From the IMG/VR virus record IMGVR_UViG_2700989507_000006: 64,000 nt of DNA. One strand, given 5' to 3'. The notes beneath the pieces were generated by a model, which saw only the letters and a list, made by a program, of their open reading frames with translations, did not search any database and was not told the origin of the DNA. This document shows positions 4,261-13,474 of this stretch, one piece after another. A program made the position numbers and the translations under genes. Within the stretch, counting starts at the first letter, position 1, and the number at the start of each line of letters is the position of its first letter. The DNA is from a virus. Lineage: Duplodnaviria; Heunggongvirae; Uroviricota; Caudoviricetes.

Positions 4261-5670
4261 TTAACCTATTGCTACTGGTTTTAACAAACCAGCATCAAGT
4301 AGCTTGCGAGTTAACCACTGCTGGCCTTTACCCGTTAATTGGGGCGTCAGCCGTATCTGATAGCCATTTTCATCATCCAGCACCACTTCTTTCACCGTGA
4401 AATACCCGGCGTTGATGTACTGTTGGCGCGGTACGTTTTTGCGCGCACCAAAAGCCATGAGAATGCCGTTCTGGCGCAACCATGAGAAAAGGGCGTTTTG
4501 CTTAAGTCCAACGACCTTTGCAAAGTTCCCGATCAGGATTCCATTAGCCACTGATACCCGATCGGCAAAATCGACTTTAGGGGCTGCGGCCACCAGCTGC
4601 TGATTTAGCTGGTGGGTTTTCTGTTCCAGTAGCTGCTTTTGTTCAGCCAGCTCGGCAGCCAGGCGCAGAGCTTCGGGAAGCGTCTGGGGGATTGCGACCG
4701 GTTGCTGTTCTTTTTGCCGGAAGTAGCTGTCTTCCAGTTTTTCAAAGAATGCCCACGCTTGCTCTGTGTCTACGATCTTAGACATGCGTGCCGCTCCGCG
4801 TTCGGTCCAGAGTATTAAGGATCTGGTCTTGGGGGAAATTTGCAGCTCGCTAAAAGATAGTCGCAAACTTTTTATCTCATCTCCTTTGATTTTAAAGAAG
4901 TGTTTACCCTCTACAAATCGTTCTTCATTGCGATTGTAGTTCTGCTGAATACGAATAGGTGTAGTGCCATACCCTCTAGCAAGAGTCTCGGTTGTCACGA
5001 CGCGTACTCCCTGCCATTCCAGAACGGGAATTTCATCAGGCTGATTTTCAACATTTATAGGTTCCAATGACTGAATCATGGTATGTAGCGAACGGCGGAC
5101 CGCTTTTGACTCGCGCGCGGCGACTCGCAGGGCTTGTTTGTAGGTCATGGTTATGACAACCATAGGCGTACCACCACCTGGCGGCACGGTTGCACTTTTT
5201 GTGTAACCGTCCTCACCTTCTAATTCGTCGAGTATTTTTTCGATGAATTTGTTGTTCCGAACCTCTGGTTCCCCACATAACTTACGCGCTTCATTGACCA
5301 TCTTTAACAGTGTCTGGCTGTCGATTGTGTCTCCGGTGGTGGGGATGACATTCACGGCTGGTGCTGGCGTTGCTGAAGCAACAGGTGCTGGTTTTTTAAC
5401 ATTCAAATTATTACTGGTCATTCTATGTGCCTCCTTTCTCATTTCTGCTGCCACCGTTGCGTAACGTAGACGTCCTTGTTCAATCAAATAATCCCTGATC
5501 TCGGCTATCAGTAGCCTGTTGATCACAGCCTTATCTGTTCGGGTATAAAAACGTCTGGTTATCATGAAATAGTTGGCAATTGCGCCGGGGATCTCCCGTG
5601 TCGGCACACAGGCAGTATGCAGGGCGATCGCTTCGGCTATGTCATTACGGGTGACGAGAGGTTTTTTCAT
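4261..5670 (-). CDS. ant: antirepressor Ant (ORF6N-type N-terminal domain plus ANT/KilAC C-terminal domain)
   Basis: 469 aa; central region matches the ORF6N domain pattern; C-terminus matches the antirepressor C-terminal domain; start overlaps the stop of the icd-like ORF. Confidence 0.65.
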   Translation of the reverse strand: MKKPLVTRNDIAEAIALHTACVPTREIPGAIANYFMITRRFYTRTDKAVINRLLIAEIRDYLIEQGRLRYATVAAEMRKEAHRMTSNNLNVKKPAPVASATPAPAVNVIPTTGDTIDSQTLLKMVNEARKLCGEPEVRNNKFIEKILDELEGEDGYTKSATVPPGGGTPMVVITMTYKQALRVAARESKAVRRSLHTMIQSLEPINVENQPDEIPVLEWQGVRVVTTETLARGYGTTPIRIQQNYNRNEERFVEGKHFFKIKGDEIKSLRLSFSELQISPKTRSLILWTERGAARMSKIVDTEQAWAFFEKLEDSYFRQKEQQPVAIPQTLPEALRLAAELAEQKQLLEQKTHQLNQQLVAAAPKVDFADRVSVANGILIGNFAKVVGLKQNALFSWLRQNGILMAFGARKNVPRQQYINAGYFTVKEVVLDDENGYQIRLTPQLTGKGQQWLTRKLLDAGLLKPVAIG

Positions 5671-5888
5671 AAACCCCCCTGAACGTCGGCAGAGAAGGGG
5701 AGGTTCCAGTAACTAAGTGAATTGCGCGAGTTAGTTGAAAAACGGGCAGTAAAAATGCAGGGGCCATCAGGCAATTGAGAGCGTGCTTCGTCTTCTGTTG
5801 CTGCGATAACGAAGTGATAGTGGTGTTTTTTACAGGAATAGAAACGCCAGATGAATTCTTGGCGTGCGCAAGGATTGGCATTAACCAT
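5667..5888 (-). CDS. icd: Icd-like small protein, translationally coupled to ant
   Basis: 73-aa ORF whose stop overlaps the ant start codon; RBS GAGG upstream; position matches P1 icd downstream of c4. Confidence 0.45.
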   Translation of the reverse strand: MVNANPCARQEFIWRFYSCKKHHYHFVIAATEDEARSQLPDGPCIFTARFSTNSRNSLSYWNLPFSADVQGGL

Positions 5889-5927
5889 AGTTACGGCCTC
5901 ACAATCAGGTTTAACAACCTGCTACCC

Positions 5928-6106
5928 GCTGCTAAACAGGTGGCAGGACGTGACGGGGTTAGCAGACTGGCGATTGTGAAACCAGCAGGCCGAAGCCTCC
6001 CCATCACGCCCCACCATAATTTGGGCGTAACGCGGTTTTACGGACACAAAAATACCGCAATATAGGATATCTGCGGCTGTCCGCACAATCATTCAGGCTG
6101 CTAAAC
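5928..6106 (-). ncRNA. c4: c4-type antisense RNA and leader region (boundaries approximate)
   Basis: 10-bp direct repeats (gtttagcagc on the transcribed strand) at 5928-5937 and 6097-6106 flank a segment containing partially complementary elements; sits between a sigma70-like promoter and icd, as in the P1 immI leader. The about 77-nt RNA itself probably lies near 5945-6025. Confidence 0.35.
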
Positions 6107-6133
6107 CCGGTCGCAGAATTTGCTACGACGGCG

Positions 6134-6162
6134 GAACTATAAGCCTGAACGATTAAAAGGTC
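6134..6162 (-). promoter_or_regulatory. sigma70-like promoter (TTGACC-17-TATAGT) reading toward c4-icd-ant
   Basis: Hexamers with 17-bp spacing read on the minus strand. Confidence 0.4.
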
Positions 6163-6202
6163 AATATGATGCGAAAAGATAGCATTCGCGACTTAAAAAT
6201 AC

Positions 6203-6219
6203 AAATTTATTAGAGCATT
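6203..6219. promoter_or_regulatory. C1 repressor operator (15-16/17)
   Basis: aaatttattagagcatt, lying between the divergent immI leader and the downstream secreted-protein gene. Confidence 0.55.
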
Positions 6220-6315
6220 ATATGCTTAATAAATACACAATTGGATCTAATAACCTCTTTTTTTTAAAGGCGAAAATATGTACCCTAAATGAGTTATAAG
6301 GCAGGTGAGGTTATA

Positions 6316-6963
6316 ATGAGAAAACTATTACTACCGTTATTATTTATGGCTGGGACTGTTAATGCAGCATCAAGCGTAAAGGAGATTTGTACCGATTATA
6401 CGAAATACCTTGGGCACGTTTACGGCTTTGCTGTCAGTCAAGACGAATCCATGCGCAAGAAGTTACTGTCAGATATGAAACGCCTTAAACTTTCTGAAGC
6501 GATGGTGCAGCAAGAACTGTATAAAGTCGCAACCAACGAAAATGCTAAATATCAATATTCTCGCCTGTTAAATCCCGACGCAAACGAGATCAATCGAAGC
6601 TCTTTCGATTATATGGTAAAGGCATGCGAAACCGCTCCTGATTTTGCTATCCCTAGCTGGGGTGTGCTGGTGGCGAGCAATGCCGTTAATAAAGAAGACG
6701 TTGGAAGAAACGGCATTGATTCAATCAGAAACGCCCCGGGAATGCGCCATCAAAACGTGCAGGGTACGCTTGAAGAGCGGGCCAGGGGGCCGGGTACAAA
6801 CTCCCCAATGGGAAACCTCTCACCAGAGGAATTGCAAGAGTATAACCAACGGATGGAGCAGTATGAGAAAGCGGCACGCGAACAAATGGAACAACAAAAG
6901 AACGGCTCACTTAATACCTTCCAGCAAGGTTTAAAAGCGCTTAATTTACCCTATGAATGGTAA
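6316..6963 (+). CDS. secreted/periplasmic protein, possible superinfection-exclusion (Sim-like) protein
   Basis: Start chosen at MRKLLLPLLFMAGTVNAASS (signal peptide) with RBS ggtgagg; ORF track starts at 6289. Shares a peptide motif with Sit (see findings). Confidence 0.6.
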   Translation: MRKLLLPLLFMAGTVNAASSVKEICTDYTKYLGHVYGFAVSQDESMRKKLLSDMKRLKLSEAMVQQELYKVATNENAKYQYSRLLNPDANEINRSSFDYMVKACETAPDFAIPSWGVLVASNAVNKEDVGRNGIDSIRNAPGMRHQNVQGTLEERARGPGTNSPMGNLSPEELQEYNQRMEQYEKAAREQMEQQKNGSLNTFQQGLKALNLPYEW

Positions 6964-7024
6964 ATATATTATGGATAACCAATTAAAATATTGATAATCG
7001 TTAATATCCAAAGGAGATAAATTA

Positions 7025-7501
7025 ATGCGCATCAAACGATTTTTTCTAATTCTTGCTTTGCTTACTCCATTTTCATCAATGGCAAATGTAAGCAAATGGT
7101 CAACCGGCGAGACTCATGGTGTTCGTTCTTATGCTGTTTCCAGCAAAGATAATTATACGCTTACATTTGAGTGCGATGTTGGATTTAATAATACGGATCC
7201 CAATCAAGTAGGAACACGACTACTCACTCTCATGAAAACAGAACCTGGCGGTGAGTCATTTGATGCTAAAAAAGAACAAATAACGCTGAAAGTTGGTGAT
7301 GATGAATATCCTATCAGTTCTATCGGTTCCTCTGTGGGTGATAGTTACTGGTATGGTTTTTGGTCAGATACCCCTGATATGGAAGTTAAAACATTCGATG
7401 CATACGTAGACGGAAAAAAAATCGCAACATTTACGCTACGTAAGGCCGCAGAGCTTTTCAACGCGGCACCTGAAGATGGCTGCCTGAAGCGCGCAAAATG
7501 A
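7025..7501 (+). CDS. secreted protein of unknown function
   Basis: 158 aa with N-terminal signal peptide MRIKRFFLILALLTPFSSMA; RBS aaggagat upstream. Confidence 0.55.
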   Translation: MRIKRFFLILALLTPFSSMANVSKWSTGETHGVRSYAVSSKDNYTLTFECDVGFNNTDPNQVGTRLLTLMKTEPGGESFDAKKEQITLKVGDDEYPISSIGSSVGDSYWYGFWSDTPDMEVKTFDAYVDGKKIATFTLRKAAELFNAAPEDGCLKRAK

Positions 7502-7535
7502 CCTGTCACAAATGACTACTCGTAGAATCGGTTAA

Positions 7536-8126
<591 letters not shown>

Positions 8127-8136
8127 GGGGGCTGAT

Positions 8137-8748
8137 ATGGGGCTTAATGTTGCTTCAGTAAAGTCTTATGTATCTTCGGCATTAACGACGACATTATTTG
8201 GCTCCGGCGTTGGTGAGCGGGAAGTTGGTAAGCTGACGTCAATCATCATGAACAAAATGCTGTTCGCGCAAGGATGGCAGTTCTCTGTCGAAGTTGATGG
8301 TCTGGAGGGGGCAGACTTCTTTGCTAAAGACATTACCTACCACGATTACAGCATCGAATATGAAACGATTAAAATCGGCGGAGGGAATATCCTTCAGCCA
8401 ACGGAGCGTTCGCCTGGGCAGATAACAATGATGGTCAGGGATACCGTTGATGGCCTCGTTTTGGACTGGTTTAAGACGGCAAAAGGTCGGGTGATCAATC
8501 CGGACGGTACCGGGAATATACCGTCTAAATATTTGCTCAATGTGCGTATTTATCGGTTGCTGTCCTCCGGTTTAACCAAACTGGAAAATGAGATGACGGT
8601 ATTCCCGGTCACTACCGGCGATGTCACCTATGCGCGAGATCAGGTTACGGAATTTAAGTCATTCCCAATGACCTTCGCATTGCACAGCACGTTTAACCAA
8701 TCCTCAAGTTCTTTAGCTTCCCTTCTGGGCTTTAGTTTTTCTCTTTGA
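8137..8748 (+). CDS. putative tail structural protein
   Basis: 203-aa ORF, RBS gagggggc upstream, 10 bp after the previous gene. Confidence 0.45.
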   Translation: MGLNVASVKSYVSSALTTTLFGSGVGEREVGKLTSIIMNKMLFAQGWQFSVEVDGLEGADFFAKDITYHDYSIEYETIKIGGGNILQPTERSPGQITMMVRDTVDGLVLDWFKTAKGRVINPDGTGNIPSKYLLNVRIYRLLSSGLTKLENEMTVFPVTTGDVTYARDQVTEFKSFPMTFALHSTFNQSSSSLASLLGFSFSL

Positions 8749-8762
8749 ATTAAGGAGCAAGG

Positions 8763-9644
8763 ATGCTTTTACCTCTTTTCCCGCTACCATCGCGGCCAAC
8801 TGAATTGATCCAGTTCCGTCAGCCAAATATTGCTGATGCGATGCGTTTCAACTCGATAACACCGGAGGAACAAGAACAACAGACAACGGCGTATTTAAAA
8901 GCCTTGCTGGCTGAACCCGCGAAATATGATCCCCTGACATGGACGGCGCAGGACCGGATTACCGCGTTATGGTGGATATTTACTGGCTCCCGTGAAACAC
9001 CGGTCGAGACATTCACCTACACCTGTAAACATTGTGGTAAAGAGCATTATTACGATTGCGATATGAATGCTCTGGCTGAAGATATCCAGGTCCTGGAAGT
9101 GGAACCGTTCATTGACGATATTGAGGTGTCTGTAGAGGGCGTGCCTTATCAATGGCGTATCGTGCCGCTTGATGGTTGGGCAATGGAAATGCTGGAGATG
9201 CGCCGTGCAGCATTGCCACCTGAAGACGACGCGGAATTCAAAGAAGCGATCGTTGATTTGCGTTTTTGGGAATTCGCTTATCAGTGTGAACTTTATAACG
9301 ATGTTAGCGGTACTCGTGAAGAGCAGGCTGAGCGTCGTTATGAAACGATCAAACGGATGGCCATTGATACTGAATTTATGAAGCTGGCGGCACACATCCG
9401 GCTGGCTCATGAAAAGCTCGAACATGGTTTACCGTGCTACATCGATAAAGGCGAAATGCGTCTTCGTCTCCCGCCGCACAAATGCCCAAACCAGGATACA
9501 AAGGAGTCCACAGAGGGTGCGTATACCCGTCTGTGGGTGCCCTTTCGGGCTACCGACTTCATTCCACAGGTGGGGATTGAAAAGCTATCAGACCTTAGTG
9601 TCCAACCTGGTTTTGTATGGGGGTATACCGATTCAGGACGCTGA
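8763..9644 (+). CDS. putative tail assembly protein (Cys-containing)
   Basis: 293-aa ORF immediately upstream of sit; contains a CKHCGKEHYYDC motif. Confidence 0.5.
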   Translation: MLLPLFPLPSRPTELIQFRQPNIADAMRFNSITPEEQEQQTTAYLKALLAEPAKYDPLTWTAQDRITALWWIFTGSRETPVETFTYTCKHCGKEHYYDCDMNALAEDIQVLEVEPFIDDIEVSVEGVPYQWRIVPLDGWAMEMLEMRRAALPPEDDAEFKEAIVDLRFWEFAYQCELYNDVSGTREEQAERRYETIKRMAIDTEFMKLAAHIRLAHEKLEHGLPCYIDKGEMRLRLPPHKCPNQDTKESTEGAYTRLWVPFRATDFIPQVGIEKLSDLSVQPGFVWGYTDSGR

Positions 9645-9725
9645 AAGGCTCACTGAATCCTATGCGTTTTTCCTGTTGGAGAAACTGGAAGAAAAACTTA
9701 AACCGAAGCGGTAGGCGATAAGATC

Positions 9726-12700
9726 ATGGAAAGAAAAAACGCCAACATTGACGATGTGATAAGGACGGTTGAAACCGCCAGCGCAAAAGAGCTGGAAGAG
9801 CTTGCAGGTATTCGGGAAGCTGTTGAAGATTTGAAAGGGGGGCGAGTTGCTACTGTTGATCCTGTCTCTCGCAGCGTGTCGGCATTAAATCGCACAATCG
9901 AAAATTCCCGGCCTGACTTTGTGGCCAAAGCGCCATCCGTAGACCCTATTGTTGACGCAATGAAACGGCTTAATTTAGGGGACGTTTCTCGTGTAGTTCA
10001 GGAAGATGTTGCTCAACAGGAACAGCGGGCCAAATCAACCACACCAAAGGGTAAAAAACGACGCAGGAAGGCTATACCAGAGGATGTAAAGGCACAACGG
10101 ACCGAAGCAGCCGAACACGCTCGCGAAATGTTCGGTCAAAAAGGCGGTGCGCAAAAAAGCCAAAACCAACGCGATGCGCGTGGTCGTTTTATTGGAAAGT
10201 CAGGGAGTAAGGCCGCAGCGGAAGATGCCCGTGCTGAACGAGCAGAAAAGGCCAGGCGAAAAGAGGATGATGAGCGTCTAAATGCTGAATCAGGTTTATT
10301 AAAAAAACTGTCAAAAGTAGCTGAAGGCATAGGTAACCCTTCAGAGACTCGTGCCGTCGATGCGTTAGGTTATGCCGTTGCTGGTCCATTGTGGGCAGCA
10401 GGGAAGGAGCTTGGCGGGATATCAAAAGAAGTTGGTGGATCGCTTAATGGTGCCAGAAAGTCTATTGCCGATGTGATTCGTGGCAATGACGATAACAGCC
10501 GTAGAAAAGGTTTTTTTAGGCGTAAATCGCAAAATAGTGCCGATGTCGTTCAGGTTAACACCCAAAAACGGACGGTTCAGGAACTTCAGGAGCAGACCAG
10601 CGAAATTAAAGAGGGCAATGACAAGATTCTCAGCGCCCTTGATCAGATAGCCAAAAACACCGGGAAAAAGAAGGGCGGCTTGCTGTCCAAACTATTTAGC
10701 CTGTTAGGGAAGGGGGCCGGTGGCGTCGCGTCGTTGTTAATGGGGCGTGGCATGCTGAAAAAAGCTGGAGCACTCGCTTTTGGCGCTCTGGGGGCAAAGA
10801 AACTTGTAGGAATGCTACGCGGTGGTGGCAAGAAGACTCTCGCCCATGAAGGCGGAGATTTGGCTGCCCGGGCAGCAGGTAAACTTGGATTAAAGGCAGT
10901 TGGTAAAGGGGCGTTACGCGCAATTCCACTAGTCGGCACAGTGGCTGGAGGTATTTATGATGCGGTAACCGGTTGGAATGATACAGAAGCGCAACGTCGA
11001 GCGTTTGGGCTTAAATCAGGACAAGATCCATCATTCCAGCAAAAAGCCGCTTATACGTTAGCTAATGTTCTTGATATGGGGGGACTGGTATCTGGTATTA
11101 GCAGCGCCATTGGTGAGGTTCTCAAATCACTTGGATTTGAGGATATCGGCAATATGTTGCAATCATTTTCGACGGAAAGTATTGCCCAGGCCATTGATAG
11201 TGGGATTACCAACTTAGAAACATATATTTCTAACCTTGGCGACACCATTTCTACCAAGTTCGATGATTACACAGCAAAGATTGGTGATGCTGTTTCAGCA
11301 TGGTTTAGCGATACATCTAATAAGCTGCTTGAAAAGCTGGATGCCATCAAAGACTTCTTTACTGTCGATAACCTGAAACAGGTTTTCAGTGATGCAATTG
11401 ATAGTGCAATTGATTTCATTAAGAACCCAGGGAAACACATTAAAGAGGCGGCTGGTAATATTTGGGATGGGGTTAAAAATTTACCAGGTAAAGCATTAGA
11501 TGCAGCGGTTGATGCCGTTAAAAATACCCCTGCGGCGATGATTGTATCAAAAATACCCAATCCGATCGGCGAGGCTAATGCGAAAGAAATCACTCCAGAG
11601 TTAAAAGCTCCGGTTAATAGCCACCAGGAGACGTCTAATTCTAAAACTGAATCCGATGCCAAACAGAGTAATATTGCTACCCGCGTGATAAATGCGGCAC
11701 TGGACACGGCGAAAGATAGCAATAAAACAGTTAAACAAACTGCCAATCAGATTATCAATGCAAATGCCGTAGAAACGGGCAATAGCGCGTTGCAGAAAAT
11801 TGATAAAGCTATTGGTCAAAATAGCTCGTCATCATCGTCGCTTAATACCACTGGCACCAGGAATGACATTCAGAAAGCTGCGGATACCTACAACAATGGC
11901 AACTTGGATGTAAAAGTCGGAAGTCTTGGCGCTGAAGGTAAGGCAAATCTCGATAAGTTGGCTCCGTATTTTGCCGAACTAGAGAATAAATACGGTCTTC
12001 CAGAAGGCACTCTTTACGCGATTGCTGCAACTGAATCTGGTGGTAATCCGTATGCAAAATCCCAAACCGGTGCTCTGGGGATGTTTCAGTTCACGGGGAT
12101 TGCTCGTGAAGAGACTGGCTTAGCTGAAGGTGAATCGTTTGATCCTGTGAAATCGGCAGAAGCTGCGGCTCTTCTCATGAGCAAATATCTGAAGCAAGCC
12201 AATGGAGACTTAAACGAGGCCATCACTGCATATAATGCTGGGTTTGGCACTATCAATAAGTGGAAAAAAGGCACAGGTGACTTATCGAAAGAAAACCGTG
12301 AGTACGCGATCAAGGTCAATACTCATCGTGCTCGCTATTTAGGTGGTGAAATCTATACACCTGGAGCAGGAGCACAGGGTGGGGCGCAATATGGAGTGAG
12401 GGGACCACTGCCTGATAACGCTGTTATCGATCAGTCTACTGGCCTAGCGTTTACCCCTGGTGATAGCCCGTTTGAGAAAGGCGGTCTGGTAGACAAAATT
12501 GGTAATGCTGTTGGCGTTAACGATCTGGTCAACAAATTCATGAATGGCCGGGGTATGCGTCGGGAAGTCGTTCAGGGAACGCTCGAAGAACGTGCACGAG
12601 GGAAGGGGACCGCAACAGCAGCTGGCAATGTGTATGTTGATACCCCGATGCCAGTTGAAGAGGCGCGTCCGGTGGCCAACAACTCAAGTTACTTTGACCA

Positions 12701-13118
12701 GCTCGGCGCACAAATGGGGGTTGATGGACTATTCGATAAACTCCGCAACTCGCCGGGGATGCGGAAAAATAATGCGCCTGAACCAGCCTCCACGTCCCAG
12801 GTGACGACTGCCGCCAACGATTTGCAGCAACCAACCGGTCGTATGCAGATAGACGGGCAGGTTATTAGTGACCTTGGCGGTTCCGGTGCCAAGCCGACAA
12901 TGCAGTTGGCTGATAATACCGTTTCACTTGATGGTGAAACGAAGCGGCTGTTTGCGCAGATGACCTCATTGCTCGCCAGGATTGAAGAGCACACCAAAGA
13001 CTCGGCGAAAGGCCAGGGAACTGTCGTAAAGGTCAGCACGCCTCAGCCGGGCGTTATGCGCACGGTACCACTGTCAATTGATGATCCGTTGATGAATGAC
13101 TACGCGAGAGTTGATTGA
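9726..13118 (+). CDS. sit: Sit-like injected/tape-measure-type protein with soluble lytic transglycosylase domain
   Basis: 1130 aa; internal SLT-type motif ESGGNPYAKSQTGALGMFQF; Gly/Lys-rich low-complexity N-terminal third. Confidence 0.8.
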   Translation: MERKNANIDDVIRTVETASAKELEELAGIREAVEDLKGGRVATVDPVSRSVSALNRTIENSRPDFVAKAPSVDPIVDAMKRLNLGDVSRVVQEDVAQQEQRAKSTTPKGKKRRRKAIPEDVKAQRTEAAEHAREMFGQKGGAQKSQNQRDARGRFIGKSGSKAAAEDARAERAEKARRKEDDERLNAESGLLKKLSKVAEGIGNPSETRAVDALGYAVAGPLWAAGKELGGISKEVGGSLNGARKSIADVIRGNDDNSRRKGFFRRKSQNSADVVQVNTQKRTVQELQEQTSEIKEGNDKILSALDQIAKNTGKKKGGLLSKLFSLLGKGAGGVASLLMGRGMLKKAGALAFGALGAKKLVGMLRGGGKKTLAHEGGDLAARAAGKLGLKAVGKGALRAIPLVGTVAGGIYDAVTGWNDTEAQRRAFGLKSGQDPSFQQKAAYTLANVLDMGGLVSGISSAIGEVLKSLGFEDIGNMLQSFSTESIAQAIDSGITNLETYISNLGDTISTKFDDYTAKIGDAVSAWFSDTSNKLLEKLDAIKDFFTVDNLKQVFSDAIDSAIDFIKNPGKHIKEAAGNIWDGVKNLPGKALDAAVDAVKNTPAAMIVSKIPNPIGEANAKEITPELKAPVNSHQETSNSKTESDAKQSNIATRVINAALDTAKDSNKTVKQTANQIINANAVETGNSALQKIDKAIGQNSSSSSSLNTTGTRNDIQKAADTYNNGNLDVKVGSLGAEGKANLDKLAPYFAELENKYGLPEGTLYAIAATESGGNPYAKSQTGALGMFQFTGIAREETGLAEGESFDPVKSAEAAALLMSKYLKQANGDLNEAITAYNAGFGTINKWKKGTGDLSKENREYAIKVNTHRARYLGGEIYTPGAGAQGGAQYGVRGPLPDNAVIDQSTGLAFTPGDSPFEKGGLVDKIGNAVGVNDLVNKFMNGRGMRREVVQGTLEERARGKGTATAAGNVYVDTPMPVEEARPVANNSSYFDQLGAQMGVDGLFDKLRNSPGMRKNNAPEPASTSQVTTAANDLQQPTGRMQIDGQVISDLGGSGAKPTMQLADNTVSLDGETKRLFAQMTSLLARIEEHTKDSAKGQGTVVKVSTPQPGVMRTVPLSIDDPLMNDYARVD

Positions 13119-13474
13119 TGGCCAACAATAACGAAATTGATCCTTTGCTGACGCTGGAGTTATCCGGCGTAAAAACGTATGAGTCCCAGGAGGAGGCCTG
13201 GGGCGCTCGTTTATATGAGTGGCTAAACACTTATCAGGGTGAGGTATACGGAGATCCGTCATGGGGCAATGTTTTACCGCAGTTTAAACACGAACCGACC
13301 AACTTGTCGCATGTTCAAATTGCGGTTGAGGCAATGCTGTTGCAAAAACTGACGGTAGATTTACCTGACATACCGATTTCTGGCTTGTCTGTAGCCGAGG
13401 GAGATGCTTTTGATAAGTTGAAAATATCCATTCGTATCAGGGATATAACTATCACACAGGAAGTGGTGCTATGA
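13115..13474 (+). CDS. putative baseplate assembly protein
   Basis: 119-aa ORF overlapping the sit stop by 4 bp. Confidence 0.45.
   Translation: MMANNNEIDPLLTLELSGVKTYESQEEAWGARLYEWLNTYQGEVYGDPSWGNVLPQFKHEPTNLSHVQIAVEAMLLQKLTVDLPDIPISGLSVAEGDAFDKLKISIRIRDITITQEVVL

Follow-up and report, generated by a model that had tools for sequence, protein, structure and literature searches.

The 64,000-nucleotide stretch of the IMG/VR virus record IMGVR_UViG_2700989507_000006 (hereafter the window) carries, ahead of a tail operon, a gene for a predicted secreted protein, SimA-FL, which shares a peptide motif with the tape-measure protein Sit encoded further along the same DNA. Positions 5600-13200 are 97.5-98.8% identical in DNA to phages P1 and P7 over the common parts, and Escherichia phage vB_EcoM-Ro157c2YLVW is 98.1% identical to this region over its whole length; the window is recognizable by sequence as a P1-like phage. 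The minus strand carries ant, icd and c4 in this order, and the plus strand carries a short cassette followed by pmgC, tub, pmgB, sit, pmgA and bplA, with sit inside the pmgC-tub-pmgB-sit-pmgA tail operon. The cassette occupies the position of simA-simB-simC in P1 and of upf50.5-upf50.0 in P7. Specifically, simA-FL lies between Oc4/c4 and pmgC, as does the P1 sim locus, with the same upstream DNA and promoter region as in P1, and neither simB nor simC is present in the window. The sim locus is one of eight hypervariable regions in a survey of P1-like phage-plasmids (PMC9603915), and the P1 annotation (NC_005856) gives the position of simABC as the superimmunity region defined by experiment. 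The window carries an ancestral-looking two-gene form of the sim cassette between Oc4 and the tail operon. The C1 repressor operator precedes the start codon of simA-FL by 97 bp, and the PsimA promoter annotated in P1 maps just downstream of this operator. Five C1-type sites are found in the window, against 0.04 expected by chance. The features are listed in Table 1.

Table 1. Features of the sim cassette and of sit in the window (aa, amino acid residues).
Feature	Position	Strand	Description and basis
C1 repressor operator (Oc4 of P1)	6203..6219	-	AATGCTCTAATAAATTT, one mismatch to the consensus; position homologous to the P1 annotation
simA-FL, full-length simA gene	6316..6963	+	215 aa, predicted secreted periplasmic protein; open reading frame; phrog_3933
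Sec signal peptide (predicted)	6316..6366	+	MRKLLLPLLFMAGTVNA, predicted cleavage after VNA, then ASS; n/h/c layout read from the sequence
Conserved all-helical N-terminal domain, aa 19-130	6370..6705	+	invariant C25 and C104; AlphaFold2
Sit-like motif, aa 139-167	6730..6816	+	NAPGMRHQNVQGTLEERARGPGTNSPMGN; linker, low AlphaFold confidence
C-terminal helix, aa 170-208	6823..6939	+	moderate confidence; AlphaFold2; homologue tails
ORF2, second secreted protein of the cassette	7025..7501	+	158 aa, YkfB-like; family phrog_3429
sit, tape-measure / injection protein with lytic transglycosylase domain	9726..13118	+	1130 aa; P1/P7 identity, 97.5-98.8%
SLT lytic transglycosylase domain, aa 748-857	11967..12296	+	PF01464, E = 8.9e-27
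Sit motif copy 1 with preceding helix, aa 927-968	12504..12629	+	NAVGVNDLVNKFM-NGRGMRREVVQGTLEERARGKGTATAAGN; alignment; motif proper aa 940-968
Sit motif copy 2, aa 996-1019	12711..12782	+	QMGVDGLFDKLR-NSPGMRKNNAPE; internal repeat; short copy aa 1008-1019 = 12747-12782

SimA-FL is assigned to phrog_3933 (E = 5e-137), and those of its 28 homologue clusters that lie on contigs of ~90 kb are consistent with P1-like plasmid prophages. An alternative in-frame ATG lies upstream at 6289 and is the start used in the P1 annotation; the start at 6316 is favored because AGGTGAGG ends 8 nt before its ATG. A preliminary description of this DNA had called the product a secreted protein, and the reading of the sequence agrees: the predicted signal peptide contains no lipobox cysteine, and no further hydrophobic segment follows it (the maximum Kyte-Doolittle value of a 19-residue window after residue 20 is 0.9). 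SimA-FL would be exported by a cleavable signal peptide and would be soluble in the periplasm. An AlphaFold2 model, computed with the family alignment, is all-helical over residues 19-130, with a predicted local distance difference test score (pLDDT) above 90, and falls to a pLDDT of 46-48 over residues 140-170, where the motif resides. The N-terminal region is a novel helical domain, probably with a disulfide bond; comparison with solved and viral predicted structures returned no match, and a profile search of PDB sequences yielded nothing relevant. What follows the motif is modular among homologues: some have a helical tail that ends in PYEW, others one or two Cys-hairpin modules, and others stop there. 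The tail is thus a variable or dispensable module. A precomputed label on homologues, the PTP-like phytase family PF14566, scores 26.7 bits against a gathering cutoff of 27. It is treated as spurious because it is below threshold, covers only profile positions 46-132 of 158 and conflicts with the all-helical model. As a separate observation, SimA-FL ends in ...LPYEW (6940-6960), and the unrelated P7 protein Upf50.0 (DUF5384; L002 1927-2466) ends in ...SSWW. An aromatic C-terminus on periplasmic proteins recalls the C-terminal signals of outer-membrane proteins sensed by DegS, although this is a resemblance only. In some database homologues (P0007, P0008), a frameshift near residue 137 leads into an alternative frame (6644-6934 in the window, plus strand, open for 96 codons) and the motif is lost; the probable cause is a sequencing error in a run-level assembly, or else the gene is a pseudogene there.

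Residues 139-167 of SimA-FL are identical to residues 940-968 of Sit at 19 of 29 positions. BLASTP aligns the two proteins with 23 identities over 47 residues (E = 6e-9) and detects no other similarity between them, confirming the shared peptide that the preliminary description had pointed out. The local alignment with shuffling that it had suggested gives a Smith-Waterman score of 101, which none of 1000 shuffles reaches (mean 40, standard deviation 5.7, maximum 70; Gumbel p ~5e-7). The Sit segment, which it had placed essentially correctly at 12540-12620, lies at 12543-12629, and the second, shorter copy in Sit does exist, 68 residues after the first rather than about 60. The DNA encoding the motif is identical at 54 of 87 positions (62%), and third codon positions agree in only 11 of 29 codons, showing that the DNA was not duplicated recently. 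The earlier view that the similarity is kept at the protein level is thus upheld, since synonymous sites are saturated and the motif is retained in both families. The relationship is also detected at the family level: SimA-FL matches the Sit family phrog_2533 at positions 929-972 (E = 8e-8), and Sit matches the SimA-FL family phrog_3933 (E = 3e-4). A motif profile applied to all six frames of the window identifies three copies only, namely that of SimA-FL and the two in Sit.

Sit is the P1 tape-measure protein; it is ejected on tail contraction, and the presumed role of its SLT domain is to open the cell wall. Sit is not resolved in the recent P1 virion structures (PMC12810830). Motif copy 1 lies ~80 residues after the SLT domain. 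In an AlphaFold2 model of residues 730-1130, the SLT domain has a pLDDT of 80-93, and everything after it, the motif included, has values of 26-51 (copy 1 below 50). Only the SLT domain is confident in this monomer model, which shows no confident contact of the motif with it. Of what follows the SLT domain and precedes the conserved extreme C-terminus, the motif is the most conserved stretch seen. All Sit homologues examined, including one only 29% identical, retain G-M-R-x-[QE]-V, and GMR..VVQGTL.[ED]RA.G.G is kept across Sit lineages with different codons. The segment reads NGRGMRQQVVQGTLAERAYG in L005, SAPGMRHQVVQGTLAERAYG in the Salmonella lineage, NSRGMRHEVVQGTLADRAYG in Cronobacter phage JK004 and NAPGMRHQVATGSMADRAYG in a 43% identical protein (P0156). 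The two copies in the window, each with its preceding helix, form an internal repeat that scores 55 against a mean of 22 and a maximum of 42 in 2000 shuffles (profile domain E 6e-4). Copy 2 lies inside an insertion confined to the E. coli P1/P7 lineage and is absent from P0035, P0037 and JK004, and a distant Sit (P0159, locus L179, 29% identical) carries two AEGMRHQV copies, indicating that the motif was duplicated at least twice independently. Mosaic Sits (P0034; L107 of Escherichia sp. MOD1-EC7003), in which a JK004-like SLT domain is joined to an E. coli-type C-terminal motif region, are ~58% identical overall to the query fragment and indicate recombination within sit between the SLT domain and the motif. 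In a different part of the protein, residues ~320-466 (~10680-11125 in the window) are glycine-rich and moderately hydrophobic, with Kyte-Doolittle 19-residue peaks at residues 396-414 and 444-466; this region could be a membrane-inserting part as described for other tape-measure proteins.

On the SimA side, the motif starts with a helix and continues with N-x-x-G-M-R-x-Q, after which V-[QE]-G-T-L-x-x-R-A-x-G usually comes. Wherever the motif region of a full-length homologue was read, the core N-x-x-G-M-R-x-Q is present, down to a 42% identical protein (P0158) that reads NAPGMRHQAVKGSMAERARGDGT. In an alignment of 19 SimA-FL sequences (A1), R144 is invariant, and N139, G142 and Q146 are conserved in at least 90%. 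For the core, the proportion of synonymous differences (pS) is 0.6-1.0 or saturated. Between SimA-FL lineages with saturated synonymous sites (pS 0.7-1.0), the proportion of nonsynonymous differences (pN) in the ten core codons is 0.08-0.26, compared with 0.05-0.25 in the folded domain; the codon of the core arginine switches among CGC, AGA and AGG. The motif is under purifying selection in both the SimA-FL and Sit families. Natural 163-residue SimA variants stop just after the motif, which suggests that the domain and the motif together form the retained unit. P0158 has the extended half, as do the E. coli type and several Salmonella and Klebsiella types. Absence of the motif from homologues, which the preliminary description had named as a refutation of its idea, is not what is seen for the core; the extended VQGTLEERARG is missing from many SimA homologues, and Sit copy 2 is lineage-specific. 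The shared segment is probably a short linear motif carried by two otherwise unrelated proteins, and the low-confidence regions that contain it are probably disordered.

These data bear on whether the motif does anything in the secreted protein. It might be a relic without function, left behind when sit and a sim-locus gene recombined illegitimately long ago, given that P1-like genomes are highly mosaic, that the sim locus and sit are both prone to recombination, and that many homologues diverge right after the core, placing the motif at a module junction. The variants of D6-like prophages likewise diverge both in sit and at the sim locus (PMC6799933). Against such an origin, the core is retained despite saturated synonymous divergence in a region that probably lacks structural constraint, and its presence in every full-length homologue read, the 42% identical one included, and in the 163-residue forms makes a relic highly improbable.

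The motif profile was searched against 1.84 billion representative proteins and gave 11 matches at E<=1e-3. One of them (P0160) is a spurious low-complexity repeat. Of the other ten, eight were read in sequence or belonged to the SimA-FL set beforehand, and these resemble either Sit or SimA; the remaining two, P0152 (1124 aa, match at 914-965) and the 22-residue fragment P0157, were assigned from length and match position alone. A degenerate DNA pattern matched five times in 185,579 species genomes, always in sit or simA-FL genes, and a pattern for GMRxxVxQGTLxERA matched exactly 96 times in IMG/VR, always in Sit open reading frames of P1-like contigs. Other SLT-bearing tape-measure proteins (P0049, P0050 and P0058) lack the motif. 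By these searches, the motif is exclusive to the Sit and SimA families. A few P1-like Sit and SimA sequences (L105, L106, P0040 and P0047) are filed under Bacillota/Paenibacillus metagenome-assembled genomes and 'Bacillus altitudinis', and the species-genome matches include two 'Bacillota' contigs of this kind; all almost certainly come from enterobacterial P1-like elements and reached these records through mis-binning or contamination. In two distant P1-like loci (L179 and L180), Sit carries the motif, the gene before sit's operon neighbors abuts pmgC directly, and no SimA-FL or ORF2 match is found within ~10 kb upstream and 2-4 kb downstream of sit. The motif is therefore an ancient, strongly constrained and intrinsic part of Sit, which holds the original, and SimA-FL holds the copy.

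The exclusivity also bears on a reading in which no antagonism is involved. Both proteins, each to its own end, might use the motif to engage one periplasmic factor of the host, be it a chaperone, a protease or peptidoglycan itself, and SimA-FL would then be an envelope-modifying or lysogenic-conversion protein. The modular SimA tails agree with such a role, as do the resemblance of the motif to a generic short linear motif in flexible regions and the constant company of a YkfB-family protein, which also occurs in the non-P1 prophage CP4-6 of E. coli K-12. A signal for a general host factor would not be expected to be missing from every other family among 1.84 billion proteins, and the gene occupies the exclusion locus of the very phage whose injection protein SimA-FL copies; this reading is accordingly improbable.

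The comparison with P1 clarifies what the gene at this locus is. P1 and the window stay collinear from a point before the C1 operator through about codon 45 (the P1 simA region, L001 1189-1347, compared with 6289-6450 of the window), past which the P1 DNA diverges abruptly into simB; in P7, divergence from the window begins just after the C1 operator. The first 45 residues of the 52-residue P1 SimA open reading frame match the window frame when it is read from the ATG at 6289, so that the match reaches residue 36 of the 215-residue protein. The break in collinearity at about codon 45 indicates that cassette replacement left only a stub of simA in P1 and that the gene in the window is intact. 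P1 SimA therefore shares the locus, the upstream DNA and the promoter region with SimA-FL but has neither the helical domain nor the motif. The preliminary description had reasoned from the premise that the secreted protein might be the superinfection-exclusion factor. It is not a homologue of SimC, which P1 annotation names as the superimmunity function, since BLASTP among the cassette proteins gives no match between SimA-FL and SimC at E<=1e-3; the two are alike in their predicted signal peptide and sim-locus position but unrelated in sequence, and SimC contains no Sit-like motif. What survives of that premise is a full-length SimA at the same replaceable locus.

Full-length forms are not rare. 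Among PLSDB plasmids, 267 records match SimA-FL, 84 of them at full length (at least 80% coverage), while ~30 carry the 163-residue form ending just after the motif and ~140 a 48-codon stub alone, the last two counts being extrapolated from an evenly spaced listing. Some part of simA-FL is found in 251 of 5426 complete E. coli genomes, and at least 80% of the gene in 81 of them, almost always on plasmids. The gene is thus intact in about one third of the P1-like plasmid prophages of E. coli (81/251 genomes with any part of it), elements that matter for the spread of resistance genes, and P1 'simA' can be reinterpreted as what is left of a larger gene. The only deposited phages to carry the full simA gene are Ro157c2YLVW and Cronobacter phage JK004. 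Our reading of the searchable literature turned up neither the shared motif nor a description of simA as a stub, although the stub was possibly noted in the P1 genome paper.

For other phages with contractile or long tails, it is established that the tape-measure protein has its C-terminal end at the baseplate and that this end leaves first. By this analogy, the SLT domain and the motif of Sit would enter the periplasm on tail contraction. We propose, with a probability of roughly 0.4, that SimA-FL is a periplasmic decoy that interferes with phage entry and thereby excludes superinfecting phages. SimA-FL would accumulate in the periplasm of a cell already carrying the phage and would display the Sit-like motif on its flexible linker as a soluble competitor. 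The motif would occupy whatever the Sit motif engages during genome delivery, either a component of the host envelope or a part of the entry apparatus, so that incoming P1-like phages would be stopped after adsorption. The preliminary description had envisaged competition for a periplasmic or inner-membrane partner; this is a reasonable hypothesis, with direct action on Sit itself an equal candidate. The significance of the motif, its purifying selection and exclusivity, its low-confidence context, the direction of copying, the location in the sim locus, the 163-residue forms, the divergence of D6-like prophage variants in sit and at the sim locus, and the precedents described below are all consistent with a decoy. 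The residence of SimA-FL in the periplasm, its exclusion of phages, its action as a decoy and the nature of its partner are inferred from the sequences.

Several observations weigh against the decoy, whose function is itself deduced from sequence. The tested Sim factor of P1 is the unrelated SimC, and P1 has only the SimA stub. Many SimA homologues contain the 8-residue core without the extended motif, and in them Cys-hairpin tails replace the extended half directly after GMR-x-Q. The variants do not always match within a genome, as in L005, where SimA has ESRARG and Sit has AERAYG, and since the pairing of SimA and Sit variants follows lineage, co-evolution is inseparable from shared ancestry. 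The 1.84 billion proteins and 185,579 species genomes yielded no host protein carrying the extended motif, and PADLOC, Pfam and NCBIfam give SimA-FL no assignment. The C1 operator adjoining simA-FL may mean that the gene is repressed in lysogens and expressed only after induction or infection. In JK004 (L103 2851-2889), a C1 operator-like site with an exact ATTGCTCTAATAAA core overlaps a terminator-like hairpin directly upstream of the simA-FL homologue, whose sole upstream neighbor in the stretch examined is co-directional; no divergent c4 is annotated there. The presence of this site next to a co-directional neighbor instead of c4 suggests that C1 controls the cassette itself. Separately, a distant homologue (L177) has a weaker TTGCTCTAA core upstream.

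Exclusion directed at the tape-measure protein is an established strategy. The exclusion protein gp15 of HK97 targets the tape-measure protein at genome entry. T4 Imm binds the tape-measure protein and causes exclusion (bioRxiv 10.64898/2026.03.06.709160), and Ltp of Streptococcus phage TP-J34 targets the tape-measure protein according to Bebeacua 2013, as it appears in the reference list of PMC3952083. SimA-FL is likened to these proteins by its proposed role, since all three are phage-encoded, act after adsorption and are directed at the tape-measure protein. They are membrane proteins or lipoproteins that bind through their own folds, whereas SimA-FL has no predicted membrane anchor and carries a copy of a tape-measure segment. 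The T4 genes imm and sp act early after infection, and SimA-FL may do likewise after induction or infection. Parallels also exist with short-linear-motif mimicry, in which, as in SimA-FL and Sit, a motif of 10-30 residues is found in probably disordered regions of unrelated proteins under purifying selection. Classical motif mimicry takes host motifs as its model, whereas the motif in SimA-FL is copied from a virion protein of the same phage. Since exclusion through tape-measure-mediated entry is already known, the copying of a tape-measure motif, if true, would be the new mode. That SimA-FL is the first exclusion protein to mimic the invader's own injection machinery, with the motif marking the envelope contact for DNA passage, is a tentative and somewhat doubtful extension of the decoy proposal. 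We know of no established host entry factor for P1 beyond lipopolysaccharide, and the motif bears on how P1 DNA crosses the periplasm and the inner membrane.

A further precedent concerns the cell-wall-cutting part of the tail. T4 Spackle (Sp) is a periplasmic inhibitor of the gp5 tail lysozyme (PMC7677548) and, like SimA-FL as predicted, is small, secreted, periplasmic and phage-encoded; SimA-FL could act on the corresponding part of an incoming tail, although a comparison with Spackle found no similarity in fold or sequence. SimA-FL might in this manner act directly on incoming Sit rather than on a third party. In one form of this idea, Sit uses the motif to associate with itself or to dock intramolecularly, and the soluble copy would poison Sit by assembling with it. 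In another, it mimics a segment following the SLT domain that regulates the transglycosylase, and SimA-FL inhibits cell-wall cutting as an analogue of Spackle. The spacing of the motif, ~80 residues after the SLT domain, fits such an action, and its independent duplication in two Sit lineages is consistent with an interaction that depends on valency. A small helical periplasmic protein with conserved cysteines would suit the role, for which the inhibition of a tail muralytic enzyme in the periplasm sets the precedent (PMC7677548). Considered as a whole, direct action on Sit appears rather unlikely.

The gene following simA-FL introduces one more possibility. An ORF2-family gene comes after SimA-FL in all the full-length cassettes examined, namely those of the window, L004, L005, L006 and JK004, and the two genes look like a conserved two-gene module. 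ORF2 contains two cysteines, belongs to no Pfam family and is 30% identical to YkfB of the E. coli K-12 prophage CP4-6. The pair could operate as a sensor or guard, in which the SimA motif keeps ORF2 or the SimA N-terminal domain in an inactive complex; displacement by the Sit motif of an incoming phage would then set off a block. The maintenance of the pair from E. coli to Cronobacter phage JK004 agrees with such a module. The idea is purely inferential, however, the AlphaFold2 model shows no docking of the motif on the SimA N-terminal domain, and ORF2-family genes also occur in cassettes apparently without full-length SimA (190 PLSDB records at 80% coverage or more, versus 84 with SimA-FL); a sensor is thus very unlikely, and the decoy remains the favored explanation. 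A search of the other cassette proteins (SimB, SimC, Upf50.0, Upf50.5, ORF2 and the SH3 proteins) for Sit-like segments found none. The SH3 proteins are additional products of 344-389 residues, annotated as SH3-domain-containing and encoded between the ORF2-family gene and pmgC in L004 (9128-10162) and L006 (8589-9758), and they are 69% identical to one another.

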